In this document: one piece after another, positions 4,753 through 11,717 of the stretch | How the letters are laid out: each line of letters starts with the position of its first letter | How positions within the stretch are numbered: the stretch's first letter is position 1 | Assembly: GCA_044226485.1 (NCBI GenBank) | Contig: JBGAGY010000011.1 | Coordinates: 168,806-232,805, forward strand | Length of the DNA stretch: 64,000 bases | Direction: 5' to 3' | Source: Anaerolineales bacterium | GTDB lineage: Bacteria > Chloroflexota > Anaerolineae > Anaerolineales > UBA6663 | Translations under genes and position numbers: made by a program | The notes under the pieces: generated by a model | The model's database searches: none | The model's input: the letters and a program-made list of their open reading frames with translations, nothing else | Told to the model about the DNA's origin: nothing

Positions 4753-6771
4753 TCAGCCTCGCCGTTTGCCGTTTCCAACTGGTTTTGAGCCCACTGCACC
4801 CTTGAGTGAAGGCGGTCTCTTCTTCAGGCTGTCATATAGCTGCTGAAGCTCCATCACCGGCGCAACGCCTAGATCGCAACTGAGATCCTTCTCGAGTTGC
4901 CGATATAGCTTCACAGCTGTCGATCGGTCGCCCAATGCGATCGCTGCTTGCATGCAGAGCGCAACGGCCTGTTCTTGCCACCGATTGGTCTGCAACGCCC
5001 GGCGGGATAGTTCAAGGCAGGCTCTGGGGTTGTCCTCTTGCAGCCGGTGTTGCGCCAGGGCCAGCAACGCGGTCTCGTGTTGGTCGGCCAATTTCTGGCG
5101 GATCGCAAGCGTCCAGTCGGCGTACCGCAATGCCGGAATGAACTCGCCGGCATATAGATCGACCGCCGTCTCCCAGTCGTGTGTGTTGACCGATTCCTCA
5201 AACGCCGCGAAATCGATCGCTGATCCGGCCGGCACGTGCAAACTCACACGATCGTCGGTGACGTCGAGATAGCGACACGGGAATCGGCGGTCGGGAAGGT
5301 CGGGCTCCAGGAGACGTCTGAGGGCCGATGTGGCATGGTGGACAAAGTCCAGAGCGGCGTCCGAGTCTTTGTCGGGACACAGCGCATCGCTGACCTGGGC
5401 CGACGCCAGGCTATACCCGCTGCTGACCAGCAGCAGGGCCAGCAACTCTCCGGCCCGTCGCTGCCGAAGCGCGCGGGCATCGATCCGTTGCGGTCCCACC
5501 CACACCTCCAATCGACCCAGCGTCACGACGCGGATGGGCTTGGGCGGTAAGTTCTGGATGGACTTCAATAGAACCGTCGTCGCTTCGTCCAGTTGTGGAT
5601 TGGCCGAATTGAGAAACCGCGCGATCAGTGGATAGACCCGAGCCCGTTCTCGATGGAGCAGAAAAGCGTAACCGCCTGCCTGCAAGCCCGCCACGAATTC
5701 CAGAAACAGGCCCGCCGTCTGTGGTGCGTCGCGCACGTCGCTCATCGCCGCGAGCTCCAGGACCACCTCGACCTGGTCGCAGCGCATCTCCAGTTCGGCG
5801 AAGATGGCTCGTGCCTGGTTCAGGTGGTTTTCGGCTGAGTCCAGGCTGCCGATCTGCCGTTCCGCCCGTCCCAGCTCCAATAAGGCCCGACCCTGGTAGA
5901 TTCGGTATCCGACACGCCGCGCCATCGTCAGGGCGTCCTCGGCCCAGGTGATGGCTTTGGCTTCGTCACCCCGTCGGTGGTGCATTCGGCTGATCCCAAG
6001 ACGCGTATCCAGGTTCAGACTGGGGTCGCCCAGGTGCTCGGCCGAAGCCAGGGCCTTGTCAAACTGCGTTTCGGCAAGGCCGAATTCTTCCTCATCCAGA
6101 GCCAACATGCCGGCCACATAGCAGGCATAGCCTTCACCGGCCGAGCCCGGCTGTGCCAGGGCGTTGAGCTCGGCCAGGGCTTCGTGCGTGCGCTGCCGCT
6201 GCCCTGTGAGTTGCAGGGCAATGGCCAGGGTGATCAGAGGAAAGACAGACCAGTCGGTGTAGCCGTGGGTGTGACAGAGGCGCAACGCCTGCGTGTCGGC
6301 GGCGATCGCCAGATCAAACTGCCCGCGGAACAAATAGACGCCGCTGCCAAGGTTGTGCAATGCCCGCATGCACAGCAACTGGTTCCCGATTTCGCGCGCC
6401 AGGTCAGCGGCCTGGCGGTAATAGTGTTCGCACTCGACGAGTGAGTGTGTCTCGGCCGCGCACATCCCCAGCAGCAAGAGCGCCTCGACATAGACGGAGG
6501 CCTGCGGCTCGCGGTCGGGATCCGTCAGGGTCAGGGATTCCTGCGCCAGCGACCGGGCGAGGTCGTACTGACCGAGGCGGAAACGGTAGCGCGCCACGGT
6601 GGTCAGTGCGCGGGCGCGCTCCAATGGCCGATCCCCTCCGCAGGCGCTATCCAAGGCCCGGCGCGCCATCCGCAACGCCCCGGACATATCCCCAGCCTGC
6701 TCACGTTCGTACGCCCGTTGAATAAGTGAGTCGATGTCGGTCGCGGGCGATGGCTGCATAGTCGTCGTCAT
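4753..6771 (-). CDS. SARP/BTAD-family transcriptional regulator with N-terminal TPR region
   Basis: The C-terminal part has a winged-helix-like LGRLEVWVGPQRID...RRAGELLALLL followed by a BTAD-like helical domain (DWETAVDLYAGEFIP...LYRQLEKDL). The N-terminal two thirds are TPR-like. Start could be 6813 or 6771. Confidence 0.8.
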   Translation of the reverse strand: MTTTMQPSPATDIDSLIQRAYEREQAGDMSGALRMARRALDSACGGDRPLERARALTTVARYRFRLGQYDLARSLAQESLTLTDPDREPQASVYVEALLLLGMCAAETHSLVECEHYYRQAADLAREIGNQLLCMRALHNLGSGVYLFRGQFDLAIAADTQALRLCHTHGYTDWSVFPLITLAIALQLTGQRQRTHEALAELNALAQPGSAGEGYACYVAGMLALDEEEFGLAETQFDKALASAEHLGDPSLNLDTRLGISRMHHRRGDEAKAITWAEDALTMARRVGYRIYQGRALLELGRAERQIGSLDSAENHLNQARAIFAELEMRCDQVEVVLELAAMSDVRDAPQTAGLFLEFVAGLQAGGYAFLLHRERARVYPLIARFLNSANPQLDEATTVLLKSIQNLPPKPIRVVTLGRLEVWVGPQRIDARALRQRRAGELLALLLVSSGYSLASAQVSDALCPDKDSDAALDFVHHATSALRRLLEPDLPDRRFPCRYLDVTDDRVSLHVPAGSAIDFAAFEESVNTHDWETAVDLYAGEFIPALRYADWTLAIRQKLADQHETALLALAQHRLQEDNPRACLELSRRALQTNRWQEQAVALCMQAAIALGDRSTAVKLYRQLEKDLSCDLGVAPVMELQQLYDSLKKRPPSLKGAVGSKPVGNGKRRG

Positions 6772-6986
6772 AGGGGCACTGGCATGGGCTACACGAAATA
6801 TCGAAAGACACAAACAGCCCCCTCAATCATCTTGCGCAGGCATTGCCGTGCTGCTTGAGCCAGCGCTCAGACCCACAACGCCTCGAGCCGGGCGGCTGCG
6901 CGGCGACCATCAGGGCGAGAGTCCTTGGTCTCTTGCACTCAGGTGCTCCCCCACTCTCCTCACAGATCTATCTCTTGGAAGCACGT

Positions 6987-7269: not shown

Positions 7270-8400
7270 TTGATGCCGAGACACACATCCTGGACATTCT
7301 TGTTCTGCGCACTGTTGACATGGGGATCCAGCGTATCGGTCCCGACGCTCGCTCGCCAGCCCTCGGCCCAGACGCCGCGAGCCGTCAGCCAGGCGGTCGG
7401 CGTTTGGGAAGACATCAGTGACCGACTGCCCGCCCTGCCGACCGGTGCTCGACCCATCACCCAGGTGGTGGTCAGGGCGAACATGGTCTGGGCGGCCGAG
7501 CACAACACCGGCGTGCTGTATCGCTCTGAAGATTTCGGCGCGACGTTCAGCGCCATCCCGACCGGTCTATCGAATATCTCCGACCTGGATTTCCTCGACG
7601 ACTTGAACGGCGTCATGATCAGCAACAGCAAGTTCGCCCGGACCAGCGATGGTGGCCTCACCTGGAGTGCGCCGGTGACGGTTGGCTCGCCGCTCTCCGC
7701 AATCAGCTTCGCCACACCGCTCGTCGGGTATGTGGGCAGCCAAACCGGAATCGTGTACCGGACCGCGGATGGTGGTGTCACGTGGGAGAAGAAACCCTCG
7801 TCCCTGACCTGCTGCACCGTCGCAGATCTAGCCTTTCCGAACCCGACGACGCCCGACGTTGGCTTCATGGCGATCGTCAATTCCGGCAGCATCTTGTTCC
7901 GAACAACCGACGGCGGCAGCACCTGGACGGTCGTCGATTATCAGACAATCGACAACTGGGCAGGTTCCGTGACGGCCTTCGATTTCGTATCGCCAGACTC
8001 GGCCTGGGGCGTGGGCAGTTTTGGCGGGATCCTGCAGTTCAAGAACAACCAGTGGACTCAGCAGGTCAGTCACGCCCCGGTGAGCCAGTTCGGCGAACTG
8101 GTGAGCCTATGCGGTGTGTCCTTCCTCGCCGATGCACAGGTCGGCTGGGTGGTCGGCAATGGCGGAACGATTCTGCACACGACGGACGGCGGATTGACCT
8201 GGACCCCCGAAGGGCAAAACTTGAATCTGCCGACGCAGACGGCCTTGTACGGCATCGCAGCAGTTTCTTCCACCCGAGCATTCGCCAGCGGGTATCCCGC
8301 ATCTGTCATGGGCGGCCCCGCATCCGATGGCCGGCGGTTGTTCCTGTACAGCGTGCCGGACTACGACCACCATCTGTACCTGCCACTGGTCCGACATTGA
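7270..8400 (+). CDS. secreted BNR/Asp-box (Ycf48-like) beta-propeller protein
   Basis: Signal-like N-terminus. Four Asp-box repeats: TSDGGLTWS, TADGGVTWE, TTDGGSTWT, TTDGGLTWT. C-terminal tail HHLYLPLVRH. Confidence 0.8.
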   Translation: MMPRHTSWTFLFCALLTWGSSVSVPTLARQPSAQTPRAVSQAVGVWEDISDRLPALPTGARPITQVVVRANMVWAAEHNTGVLYRSEDFGATFSAIPTGLSNISDLDFLDDLNGVMISNSKFARTSDGGLTWSAPVTVGSPLSAISFATPLVGYVGSQTGIVYRTADGGVTWEKKPSSLTCCTVADLAFPNPTTPDVGFMAIVNSGSILFRTTDGGSTWTVVDYQTIDNWAGSVTAFDFVSPDSAWGVGSFGGILQFKNNQWTQQVSHAPVSQFGELVSLCGVSFLADAQVGWVVGNGGTILHTTDGGLTWTPEGQNLNLPTQTALYGIAAVSSTRAFASGYPASVMGGPASDGRRLFLYSVPDYDHHLYLPLVRH

Positions 8401-8589
8401 CACGACCCTTCCGCCGCCGCCTTCAATCGGAGTCGATCGAATGATCTCGTTCACGATGAGAACGCCCTCCCGCAGAGCGCTCTCTGACCGCCCCATGAAT
8501 GCCGCCCTGACGACGACAAAGCTGATGGCTTCCTGCAGTCGCCGTTGCTGGCGTGCTGAAGCTGCCTACTCCGCGCGTGAGGAAAGACC

Positions 8590-10602
8590 ATGACCTCTCG
8601 ATTGTCCAACGTGATCTCCATTGTGGCGTTGTTCGCGAGCCTGAGCCCGGCAGATGGCGCCGGGCCAGGCGCCGCAGATTCCGGCCCGGCGATTTTGTAC
8701 GTGGCTCCGGGCGGAGCCTGCCTGGGGATGGCCCCGTGCTACAGCCAACCCCAGGACGCGGTCGACGCGGCCCCCGCCGGTAGCGTCATCCGGATCGCAG
8801 CCGGCACTTACGCGCTGCCGGCCGGGGCCAGCGAGGTCGTTCACCTGACGAAGCGCCTGATCCTCCAAGGCGGCTACCGGCCGGCGGATTGGTATAACGC
8901 CGACCCACTTGCCTTTCCGACGATCCTGGACGGGCTTCACCTCGGCCAGGGGATGCTGATCGAGGGCGGCCCGGGACAGCCCATCGACGTCAGCGTAGAT
9001 GGACTCCAGATCACGAGGGGTCAGGCCAGTCTGGGCGGCGGCATCGCGGGGAACAACGTGCATCTCACGCTGCTGAACAGTGTGCTCAACGACAACCAGG
9101 CCACGGGCTCAGGCGGTGGACTCTATCTCGCCGGCGAATACAGCCTCACCCTCGAATGCAGCCAGGTGATCAGCAACACCTCTGGAGATATGGGCGGGGG
9201 CCTGGCGCTGCACAGCTCGAGCGGCCAATCCACGCTCACCGGGTCGTGGATCTCGGGCAATCAGGCCGCCACGGGTGGAGGAGGATTGTCCCTAATGGGC
9301 GGGCAGGCGCAACTCACCACCGTCATGTTGGTCGACAATACCGTAACGCAGCCCAGCGCTGGTGGGGCCGCGGCGGCGGCCAGCGGGGCTGGCCTGAGCC
9401 TGACCCACACCACGCTGGCCCGCAACACGGGCGGCACAAACAGCGGAGTGAGTTTGAGCGGCACATCCGTGTTGACGGCGACCAACCTGCTGGCGGCCGG
9501 CCAGGGCGTCGCCCTCACGGCGGTCGCACCGAGCACCGGAACAGTGGACGGAGTCTTGTGGGGCAGTGGAACGACCTGGGCCAATGGCGCCAACACCGGC
9601 GGCTCCGGAGGCTTCTCGATACAGCACGCCTATTCCGGCGACCCACTGTTCGCGGCCCTCGATCCCGCCAACAAGTTGACCTATTTCCACCTGAGTGCCA
9701 CCTCGCCCGCCCGGGACCGGTCCGTGTCGACCGCGCTGGGCTTCACCGACATCGATCACGAGCCGGTCGTGAACGCGATCGCGGACCTGGGGGCGGATGA
9801 GTATTTCGCGGGCGGCATCATCCACGTCAACGTTGAGCGGGGCGGCGACATTGAAGTCGGAGCGGCCGACGGAAGCCCCGAGAACAGCTACGGGTCCATC
9901 TCCTGGAATGGATCTCAGTGGGTCACCAACGATACGAGTGCGCACCTGTACTTCACGGATTTACGGACCACGGAGCGCCTCAAACACTATGCCATGATCG
10001 CCGACCTTGGCGGCAGTGCTACGGCTGAGCAGGATCTGGCGAACTACCATCTGTCGCGCACGACGTACACGTATACGGCTCTCGCCAAGACGAGCGGCGT
10101 CTATCAGATCGAAGCTGCTCGATACCGGATCACCAGGCCTGACTCTCCCGAAACCATTTGGCTGAATTCCCGCGGGACCGGAACGGGTCAGGCCTACTTC
10201 GACATCTACATTCAATATACGGTGACCTCCACGCTCGCGGTTCGGAACGGATCCGTCTGGTTCAATTACTCAGAGCCGATTGCGGCGGCTGCCCAGCATG
10301 GGCTGAGCGACTCCACAGGGCGCGTTGGAACGCTCACAACTTGCGATCCGCAGGCCGCGGATCGGTCGGGGTACTGGCTTGACGTTAATGGCGGATCGGA
10401 CATGGGTGGGCTCACCTATTTCTTTCACACCACCCGTCATCCCAACAGCATCGTCACGCTGGGATCCTGCTTCCCAGACGAATTCCGGGTCAAGTACCTT
10501 CAGTCTTCGGCAAATGCGCTTGAAGAATTCCGCTTGCGTCCGGAGGTCGTCTCGGAAACCTGGCTGCCCGTCACGTTGTACCTGCCGTTCGTCCGCCGAT
10601 AA
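8590..10602 (+). CDS. secreted right-handed beta-helix repeat protein
   Basis: 670 aa with a hydrophobic N-terminus. Repeated GGG(L) turns (GSGGGLYLAG, MGGGLALHS, TGGGGLSLMG). C-terminal tail TLYLPFVRR. Confidence 0.75.
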   Translation: MTSRLSNVISIVALFASLSPADGAGPGAADSGPAILYVAPGGACLGMAPCYSQPQDAVDAAPAGSVIRIAAGTYALPAGASEVVHLTKRLILQGGYRPADWYNADPLAFPTILDGLHLGQGMLIEGGPGQPIDVSVDGLQITRGQASLGGGIAGNNVHLTLLNSVLNDNQATGSGGGLYLAGEYSLTLECSQVISNTSGDMGGGLALHSSSGQSTLTGSWISGNQAATGGGGLSLMGGQAQLTTVMLVDNTVTQPSAGGAAAAASGAGLSLTHTTLARNTGGTNSGVSLSGTSVLTATNLLAAGQGVALTAVAPSTGTVDGVLWGSGTTWANGANTGGSGGFSIQHAYSGDPLFAALDPANKLTYFHLSATSPARDRSVSTALGFTDIDHEPVVNAIADLGADEYFAGGIIHVNVERGGDIEVGAADGSPENSYGSISWNGSQWVTNDTSAHLYFTDLRTTERLKHYAMIADLGGSATAEQDLANYHLSRTTYTYTALAKTSGVYQIEAARYRITRPDSPETIWLNSRGTGTGQAYFDIYIQYTVTSTLAVRNGSVWFNYSEPIAAAAQHGLSDSTGRVGTLTTCDPQAADRSGYWLDVNGGSDMGGLTYFFHTTRHPNSIVTLGSCFPDEFRVKYLQSSANALEEFRLRPEVVSETWLPVTLYLPFVRR

Positions 10603-10670
10603 CCCGGGCGGGCCGAGACGCCGCCGAGATCAAACCCTGCTTTCAGACTGCCTCACTATCGGAGGATACG

Positions 10671-11717
10671 ATGCCACACAAACATCACGCTCCCCTTCGG
10701 CTTCAACTTCTGGCCATCGTTTGCGCGGTCTTGGCCCTCGCGGCGAACATGTCGGGCGCTCACGCGCTGCCCAGCGCCGAACGCCAGGCGCCCGGCGCCT
10801 GGACCAAGCTGGCGGACAATCCAGTGCTATCGCCGGGTTCGTCGGGCGCCTGGGATGATCGTTTCACCCTGGCTCCCAGCGTGTTGCTGGATGGATCAAC
10901 CTACCGGATGTGGTATGCCGGGTCCGGCGCCGTGAATACGAACCGAAGGATCGGATATGCCACCTCGCCCGATGGACTCACCTGGACCCGGCACGGGAGC
11001 GCGCCGGTCTTGAGCCCCGGCCCCGTTGGAAGCTGGGACGCCGGGCAGGTCGGATTCCCATCCGTCATCAAGGATGCCGACACTTTCAAGATGTGGTACA
11101 CCGCCCTCGACACGGCCGACATCGGCCGGGTGGGCTATGCGACGTCTTCGGATGGTTTGAACTGGACCAAATACGCGGGCAACCCTGTGCTCACGGTTGG
11201 CGGACCCGGCAGCTGGGACACGGCCTACGTGGGTGCACCGCAGGTGGTCAAGGTCGGCGGCGTGTACCACCTGTGGTACCGCGGCGGCCTTAACGGCGAT
11301 ATCGGTTATGCCACGTCAGCAGACGGTCTCACGTGGACCAAGTCGGCGCGCAACCCGGTTATTGCCAGCGGTAGCGGCGGGTGGGACGACGTCGCCTACG
11401 ATCCCAGGGTGGTGTTTGACGGCACGCTGTTCCACATGTGGTATTCCGGCTGCAACCCTGCCGGCGACCTCTGCCAGGTCGGTTACGCGACCTCGTCGGA
11501 TGGCGCCGGGTGGACGCGCCATGGGATAGTCCTCCCCCAAGGCGTTGGCGGCGCGTGGGACGACAGCGGGGCCGATCATGCAGCAGTCTTGCTGGTCGGC
11601 ACGACCCTCAAGATGTGGTATTCCGGTTTTGACGGCGAGGTCTATCGCATCGGGTATGCATCGGCGGCCACGACCACGCTGGACCATGAGTTGTATGTTC
11701 CATCTGTGATCCGGTAG
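10671..11717 (+). CDS. secreted beta-propeller protein (GH32/43/130-like fold)
   Basis: Signal-like N-terminus. Four internal repeats [IV]GYATSxDGxxWT[KR]...W. C-terminal tail HELYVPSVIR. Confidence 0.7.
   Translation: MPHKHHAPLRLQLLAIVCAVLALAANMSGAHALPSAERQAPGAWTKLADNPVLSPGSSGAWDDRFTLAPSVLLDGSTYRMWYAGSGAVNTNRRIGYATSPDGLTWTRHGSAPVLSPGPVGSWDAGQVGFPSVIKDADTFKMWYTALDTADIGRVGYATSSDGLNWTKYAGNPVLTVGGPGSWDTAYVGAPQVVKVGGVYHLWYRGGLNGDIGYATSADGLTWTKSARNPVIASGSGGWDDVAYDPRVVFDGTLFHMWYSGCNPAGDLCQVGYATSSDGAGWTRHGIVLPQGVGGAWDDSGADHAAVLLVGTTLKMWYSGFDGEVYRIGYASAATTTLDHELYVPSVIR

Follow-up and report, generated by a model that had tools for sequence, protein, structure and literature searches.

How do three adjacent exported proteins of unrelated fold come to end in the same short tail, and what might that tail do for the cell? 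This question is raised by three tandem genes in a 64,000-nucleotide stretch of the genome of an Anaerolineales bacterium of the phylum Chloroflexota (contig JBGAGY010000011.1, positions 168,806 to 232,805; hereafter the window). Each product has a signal-peptide-like N-terminus and ends in eight residues that are followed directly by the stop codon, with no membrane helix and no Thr-Gly (Table 1). An earlier inspection of the letters alone (the sequence-only reading) had drawn attention to these tails and suggested that they could be a sorting, anchoring or processing tag of an uncharacterised system. We find that all three tails belong to the YLP-box of Chloroflexota, with the consensus h-[Y/F/W]-[L/V/I/M]-P-x-[L/V/I]-x-[R/K/H], and that this motif has already been catalogued, such that the window contributes no new kind of signal. 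As to its function, we tentatively favor the view that the YLP-box is a retention tag, bound non-covalently as a linear peptide by a component of the cell envelope.

Three proteins of unrelated fold carry a catalogued motif

Our analysis confirmed the arrangement described by the sequence-only reading, namely three adjacent genes for secreted proteins, in tandem on one strand, whose products share a tail. Pfam assigns the carriers to a BNR-type propeller, a right-handed beta-helix and a GH130/GH32-type propeller, in agreement with the claim that they are unrelated in fold; the body of the beta-helix protein matched no NCBIfam family. It also holds that the tail, with no helix after it, is unlike the signals of sortases, exosortases, rhombosortases and archaeosortases.

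NCBIfam contains two models of the motif, NF050076 ('sort_motif_YLP', cut-off 15 bits) and NF053834 ('ultrashort_CTERM', cut-off 10 bits), both titled 'YLP-box putative sorting motif-containing protein'. When 30-residue C-terminal pieces were scored, tail 1 exceeded both cut-offs, tail 2 exceeded that of NF053834 and fell just under that of NF050076, and tail 3 matched neither model. Tail 3 does align with the tails of its orthologues, which take forms such as ..LDHx[IV][FY][LI]Pxhx[KR]. The window proteins thus share with the catalogued YLP-box its motif, its extreme C-terminal position, its phylum and its kind of exported carrier, and differ in that LYVPSVIR of protein 3 is too diverged to score; the models themselves describe the motif only. 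As elsewhere in Chloroflexota, the box has many unrelated carriers per genome, with 26 in this genome and matches in 25 of 25 genomes of the family we label f22. Neither model turned up when the full-length proteins were scanned against NCBIfam, which means that the motif is easily overlooked, and our literature search found no paper on the motif, its mechanism or its partner.

The tail is enriched on exported proteins and conserved among orthologues

A motif this short could recur through chance or composition, or could be the last strand of each fold, and the 11-position NCBIfam model indeed finds chance matches in 11 of 14 control genomes. We assessed this explanation in the genome that contains the window (G000; 6.58 Mb in 30 contigs, 96% complete), taking 29,618 stop-to-stop frames of at least 100 amino acids as the base and deriving the expectation from the internal rate of the motif. 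The pattern Y[LVIM]P.[LVIMF].[RKH] occurred at the exact C-terminus 13 times versus 0.24 expected (~54-fold enrichment). With F or W permitted at the Y position there were 26 carrier proteins, 20 of which end exactly on the basic residue (among the 26 tails, Arg 19, His 4, Lys 3), and weaker preferences were seen upstream of the box (Leu at -4, Pro at -3, Arg at -1). An N-terminal hydrophobic signal-like run was present in 18 of the 20 carriers of a slightly stricter set, compared with 26% of all open reading frames (ORFs; odds ratio 26, p = 3e-9). A broader pattern gave 18 matches in this genome, while its reversed control gave 0.

We also observed that the tail is retained in orthologues of all three proteins. 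For protein 1 it was kept in all five hits of at least 53% identity (5 of the 82 hits listed), and for protein 2 in 17 of 18 hits of at least 51% identity (85 of the 120 listed), the window's own protein being counted in both cases. For protein 3, a regular expression found it in 48 of the 120 listed hits, including nearly all of those above about 55% identity. Protein 3 contains five copies of a blade-closing motif, (R/Q)(I/V)GYA(T/S), the last copy being 15 residues short of the C-terminus, which places its tail outside the fold and beyond the last propeller blade. Together, the C-terminal enrichment, the tie to signal peptides, the reversed-pattern control and the conservation across three unrelated folds refute chance resemblance, to which we assign a negligible probability. 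Both genome-wide enrichment and orthologue conservation, the checks that the sequence-only reading had proposed, came out in its favor.

A related genome contains a partly syntenic cluster (L049) that encodes a TPR-BTAD regulator, a BNR protein, a GH130-like protein and a third beta-rich protein, and its three secreted proteins all have tails (..AAFLPLIVR, ..KVFIPMVMK and ..LYIPMVTSGAR). Among distant homologues of proteins 1 and 3, many carry the type IX secretion system (T9SS) sorting domain PF18962 at the C-terminus, at least one of them being annotated as Bacteroidota; Pfam found no PF18962 match in the three window proteins. At the same position, one homologue of protein 3 has a membrane anchor in the form of a helix and another has an end that was read as dockerin-like. 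The proposal of a tag belonging to an uncharacterised system therefore stands in part: exported proteins do carry the tail as a conserved tag, and homologues in other phyla have sorting or anchoring modules in its place, but the signal was already listed as NF050076 and NF053834.

Tail-rich genomes without a classical sortase

To follow the motif across Chloroflexota, we searched at codon level for Y-h-P-h-h-[RS]-[RS]-stop, with the reversed pattern as the control. The pattern had 7 matches versus 0 control matches in this genome and hit every one of the 25 f22 genomes, the richest of them 16 times, whereas most other families were at control level; those matches that we inspected were mostly true ends of long ORFs. 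On a panel of 58 genomes, the broader pattern and its reversed control gave 22 versus 3 matches in the cultured Herpetosiphon aurantiacus DSM 785 (G223), 63 versus 4 in a Herpetosiphonaceae relative (G126) and 48 versus 5 in G391. By comparison, two closed genomes of the sister family f2 showed no excess with the first broad pattern (G043, 3 versus 11; G258, 4 versus 6). We conclude that the distribution of the YLP-box within Chloroflexota is patchy.

One explanation of the box is that it is a degenerate LPXTG-type signal that is handled by classical sortase (PF04203). Its L-P-x-h-x core resembles L-P-x-T-G, and sortase occurs in 283 of 401 Chloroflexota genomes, among them this one and the full set of 25 from f22. 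Divergent sortases and DUF11 proteins with LP[QENR]T[GA] signals also adjoin genes for C25 peptidases and YLP-tagged proteins. However, we found no sortase candidate in G076 (closed, 2.57 Mb, 99% complete) or in its sister G148, both of which have an excess of tails (27 versus 9 control and 14 versus 4 control, respectively). In twelve 20-kb regions of G076 that we read, many large signal-peptide proteins end in ..FLPLIRR, ..FLPLILR, ..YIPLLRR and similar tails. Conversely, all 24 f2 genomes encode sortase, yet their tails are at chance level, as illustrated by the sortase-positive G043 and G258. This phyletic pattern rejects classical sortase as the required enzyme, and with tails that contain neither Thr-Gly nor a membrane helix, we regard the degenerate-LPXTG explanation as very improbable. 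True LPETG signals followed by a helix are encoded elsewhere in this genome.

An exosortase of the PEP-CTERM kind was likewise rejected as a candidate, since the tails have no helix and a search of this genome yielded no PF09721 match. The required enzyme is thus neither classical sortase nor exosortase. The YLP-box resembles the Gram-positive LPXTG signal in being C-terminal, in having a Leu-Pro core, in often standing behind a Pro/Thr linker (which spans the wall in LPXTG proteins) and in occurring on surface enzymes and adhesins. It differs in lacking Thr-Gly, the hydrophobic helix and the charged stop-transfer tail, in occurring also at the N-terminus and in being present in sortase-free genomes.

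Two further observations concern tails in these genomes. Beside the C25 gene of G346, a gene for a DUF11 protein (L069:7720-8388, minus strand) encodes the end ..LLPETGRR followed by the stop codon, with two arginines and no membrane helix. In form, this end stands between LPXTG signals and the YLP-box, and it counts on the side of a degenerate LPXTG signal. Separately, three tandem paralogous secreted proteins in G076 (L032:8378-13971, plus strand; 578, 580 and 427 amino acids) all end in ..IFLPLI[RL]R, and the repeated spacers between their genes indicate recent local amplification of tagged genes.

The box also occurs after signal peptides

In about 8-9 proteins of this genome, we found the same box 4-10 residues past the predicted signal-peptidase site (Table 1). 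A strict form of the box occurred 5 times in such post-signal windows versus 0.64 times expected (p = 5e-4). These N-terminal boxes mostly precede a Pro/Thr-rich or low-complexity stretch, and two of the carriers have twin-arginine-like signals. In other genomes, a Pro/Thr linker stands directly before C-terminal boxes (loci L014 and L029). We conclude that the YLP-box works at either end of a protein, and a single C-terminal cleavage-and-transfer chemistry cannot account for both positions.

A PorU-like C25 peptidase is linked to the tail between families

The sequence-only reading had proposed a search for a protease or transpeptidase that co-occurs with the tail. Sortase fails this comparison, as described above, but C25 peptidases (PF01364) show a partial link. 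Family PF01364 is present in this genome and in the tail-rich G076 and G148, was not found in G043 or G258, and occurs in 63 of 401 Chloroflexota genomes, including all 25 f22 genomes and every Herpetosiphonaceae genome that we checked. Of the 24 genomes in which at least two R-type tails were matched, 22 have C25, as do 16 of the 19 genomes in the 58-genome panel whose tail excess is clear. For the C25 protein in this genome (C13:233608-236460), the best match is NF033707, 'T9SS sortase PorU', at 216 bits, which is below the equivalog cut-off, and the protein retains the invariant His and Cys. In tail-rich genomes, C25 proteins have a YLP-type tail at their own end, directly after the domain; in genomes without a clear tail excess, the tail was missing from the C25 proteins of G002, G166, G383 and G105 and present in that of G291. 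The C25 gene adjoins those of large YLP-tagged adhesins in families f1, f3, f22, f38, f41 and f7.

PorU is the sortase-type transpeptidase for T9SS cargo, and the YLP-box could in the same way be what a PorU-like C25 cysteine peptidase recognizes before it cuts off the tail and joins the protein by a covalent bond to a polymer of the wall or surface. The co-occurrence at family level, the PorU-like enzyme with its retained residues, the proximity to adhesins in six families and the T9SS C-terminal domains (CTDs) of distant cargo homologues all speak for such a role, as does the tag on the enzyme itself, since PorU itself carries a CTD. Within families, however, we observed no such relationship. 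Neither the family model nor a protein query found C25 in G242 (97% complete, 3 contigs) or G266, although the tail excess of these genomes equals that of their C25-positive sister species G184 and G202; in G242 and G266 together, eleven tagged proteins were confirmed, almost all with a clear signal-like start. At least seven C25-positive genomes have no tail excess, and contrasts within seven families or genera (f3/g11, f2/g9, f7, f15, f25, f41 and f42) showed no dependence of the tails on C25. Furthermore, N-terminal boxes cannot be processed by C-terminal transpeptidation, and C25 may be no more than a common cargo, which would account for the co-occurrence equally well. C25 is therefore associated with the tail between families and not within them, and it appears to be dispensable in some lineages. 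From these data, we consider it unlikely, though worth keeping in view, that the box serves as the substrate signal of C25.

Two other lines of inquiry bear on C25. A predicted complex of C25 residues 293-935 with the last 40 residues of the neighboring tagged adhesin scored 0.02 against a mark of 0.32, a result that counts neither way. Peptidase C11, of clan CD, was considered as a stand-in for C25 and set aside as not universal; it is present in this genome and in G266 and was not found in G242 or G130.

Outside the window, this genome has an operon that places several of these elements together (C13; Table 1). Its products are, in order, an SdrD-like adhesin ending in ..RLFLPSLLRR, the PorU-like C25 peptidase ending in ..VTLPVIRR, a DUF11 protein with a signal peptide, a Pro/Thr linker and a classical LPETG signal with helix and basic tail, a divergent sortase (44 bits; not picked up when the whole genome was scanned for the family), an extracytoplasmic function (ECF) sigma factor and a 984-residue propeller protein. 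A module consisting of a large tagged adhesin, a DUF11 protein with LP[QENR]T[GA] and C25 recurs at L053-L055 and L061-L064 (f22, f59), at L069 (f7) and at L048 (f1). The DUF11 proteins of the module have a common [I/V]TE[T/V]-type motif just past the signal peptide, and the tails of the C25 proteins in f1, f22 and f59 have no aromatic residue (VTLPVIRR, VALPLVQR, VTLPLVQR and VDVPLLQR).

In an extended form of the C25 explanation, single-membrane Chloroflexota would sort proteins by means of the YLP-box and PorU-like C25 together, and this system would have an evolutionary link to the step of type IX secretion at which cargo is attached. The tagged enzyme would remove the eight-residue tail and attach the cargo either to a polymer of the surface or to a DUF11 fiber that is built by sortase and encoded beside the enzyme, and lineages that have lost C25 would rely on a substitute enzyme. 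The YLP-box does mark the same classes of secreted hydrolases as the T9SS CTD, PF18962 occupies its place in distant homologues, and a tagged PorU-like C25 co-occurs with it at family level. On the other hand, the box consists of 8 residues while the CTD, at roughly 80 residues, is a folded domain, and some YLP-rich genomes have no detectable C25. We view this extended proposal as distinctly unlikely.

Genes around the cluster and a possible role in processing

Upstream of the cluster and divergently transcribed from it is a gene for a regulator with TPR and BTAD domains (Table 1), which is likely context that is separate from the tag. As a TPR-BTAD gene is also found directly upstream of the cluster in the related genome (L049 4214-6157), this regulator may control the three genes. 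A promoter scan of the cluster found no promoter-like site, and the two terminator-like sites found are below the shuffled expectation.

The window also contains four of the 16 genes for CPBP/Rce1-like (PF02517) intramembrane proteases of this genome (31634-31942, 32923-33243, 33673-33945 and 41951-42211, all on the minus strand), three of which lie within 2.3 kb and none of which adjoins the YLP cluster. Elsewhere in the genome, two ORFs that overlap CPBP-family matches (C13:217944-218903 and C28:7823-8743, both on the plus strand) share ..GGFGPEGGL followed by a membrane helix and a basic tail, which looks like a separate C-terminal signal. We did not retain the CPBP family as a partner of the YLP-box, given its 16 copies with none adjoining the cluster and a distribution too widespread for presence/absence testing.

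These proteases are relevant to the idea that the box serves not retention but processing, maturation or turnover, either as a propeptide boundary or as a tag that a protease or quality-control factor of the envelope would read. A protease specific for Arg or Lys, as gingipains are, would match the conserved basic residue, and boxes located between a signal peptide and a linker fit a propeptide cut. CPBP enzymes are numerous, one is encoded near the syntenic cluster of the related genome, and their eukaryotic relatives trim very short C-terminal motifs. However, the 20 tails that end on the basic residue leave nothing to remove after it, CPBP enzymes act within the membrane whereas the tail is not membrane-embedded, and standing in for the sorting domains of homologues is not what one would expect of a turnover tag. 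We therefore judge a processing or turnover role to be quite improbable.

Table 1. Positions of the genes and tails of the cluster and of related features. Coordinates without a prefix refer to the window; prefixes C5 to C28 denote contigs of this genome.
Feature	Coordinates	Strand	Details
Gene 1, exported BNR/Ycf48-like beta-propeller protein, 376 aa	7270..8400	+	Pfam PSII_BNR 8.7e-17, BNR 3.5e-10; signal-like N-terminus
Tail 1, LYLPLVRH (..HHLYLPLVRH), YLP-box at exact C-terminus	8374..8397	+	NF050076 16.4 bits; NF053834 16.0 bits
Gene 2, exported right-handed beta-helix protein, 670 aa	8590..10602	+	Pfam Beta_helix 2.8e-6
Tail 2, LYLPFVRR (..TLYLPFVRR), YLP-box at exact C-terminus	10576..10599	+	NF053834 14.7 bits; NF050076 14.3 bits
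Gene 3, exported five-bladed propeller, GH130/GH32-like (DUF377-type), 348 aa	10671..11717	+	Pfam Glyco_hydro_130 3.6e-10, Glyco_hydro_32N 2.3e-5
Tail 3, LYVPSVIR (..HELYVPSVIR), diverged YLP-box at exact C-terminus	11691..11714	+	In register with orthologue tails
TPR + BTAD-type (SARP-like) regulator	4753..6813	-	ORF
Operon with six products	C13:228408-239267 (locus L048 4409-15268)	-	Outside the window
N-terminal YLP-box protein	C8:397013-398239		
N-terminal YLP-box protein	C8:44334-45464		
N-terminal YLP-box protein	C16:10593-11633		
N-terminal YLP-box protein	C21:15122-16867		
N-terminal YLP-box protein	C24:118665-120308		
N-terminal YLP-box protein	C26:85125-85757		
N-terminal YLP-box protein	C27:241328-243157	-	
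N-terminal YLP-box protein	C28:60617-62638	-	
N-terminal YLP-box protein	C5 within 393817-394920		

Discussion

We favor non-covalent retention as the function of the YLP-box because the box is terminal and often behind a linker, is found at both protein ends, replaces the sorting or anchoring modules of homologues and occurs in genomes that are without each candidate transpeptidase. In this model, the box on enzymes and adhesins exported by Sec or Tat would hold these proteins at the cell envelope, filling the place that T9SS CTDs or membrane anchors have on homologous enzymes elsewhere. Ending 0-4 residues from the C-terminus, or starting 4-10 residues past the signal-peptidase site, it would offer a linear peptide with a free end, placed at the terminus remote from the catalytic domain and in many cases preceded by a Pro/Thr linker. 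A component of the envelope would then capture the box without forming a covalent bond, perhaps by docking it as a strand or in a groove while the basic end meets acidic groups, and neither a membrane-retention step nor a dedicated sortase would be needed. Retention of the carriers at the envelope, their non-covalent capture and the existence of a receptor for the box are inferences of this model.

Known tethers offer partial parallels to this model. Dockerin-cohesin pairs and SLH-type tethers also use a terminal module behind a linker to tether diverse enzymes to the surface, as we propose for the YLP-box, but they are folded domains with known receptors and the YLP-box is a linear peptide. 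Braun lipoprotein, whose C-terminal Lys is joined to peptidoglycan by L,D-transpeptidases, resembles the YLP-box in that its C-terminal signal is very short, has a basic residue at the end and includes no helix. Its attachment needs the epsilon-amine of Lys, whereas the YLP-box mostly has Arg and sometimes His, and extra residues may follow. With Lys in 3 of 26 tails, we rejected Braun-type attachment through a terminal Lys.

Several observations weigh against retention by non-covalent capture. We identified no receptor for the tag. An all-against-all comparison of 313 neighbors of tagged genes in this genome returned generic families only, and no recurrent gene family was found around the tagged genes either here or, among non-cargo genes, in the twelve regions of G076. 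Our literature search, which covered the motif strings, sorting signals of Chloroflexi, PorU/C25 and the Herpetosiphon secretome, found no experimental localization data. Eight residues are few for the stable anchoring of proteins of 2,000 or more amino acids, and the family-level link to a tagged PorU-like C25 suits an enzymatic, covalent route better. In addition, every YLP-rich genome that we examined has either sortase or C25, which leaves some likelihood to an either-or enzymatic route through one or the other. What probability remains belongs to something that we have not considered.

Soils, hot springs, sediments and wastewater sludge all harbor abundant filamentous Chloroflexota, which export large sets of hydrolases and adhesins. 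The YLP-box bears on how such a single-membrane cell keeps its exported proteins at the surface with a tag of eight residues, and a retention tag this small would also serve surface display. Beyond what the catalogue holds, our analysis adds the N-terminal boxes, the exchange of the box with sorting modules in other phyla, the finding that sortase is not required and the finding that C25 is linked to the tail yet apparently dispensable in some lineages. These comparative tests narrow the search for the mechanism, and H. aurantiacus DSM 785 is a cultured carrier of the box in which that search may be pursued.

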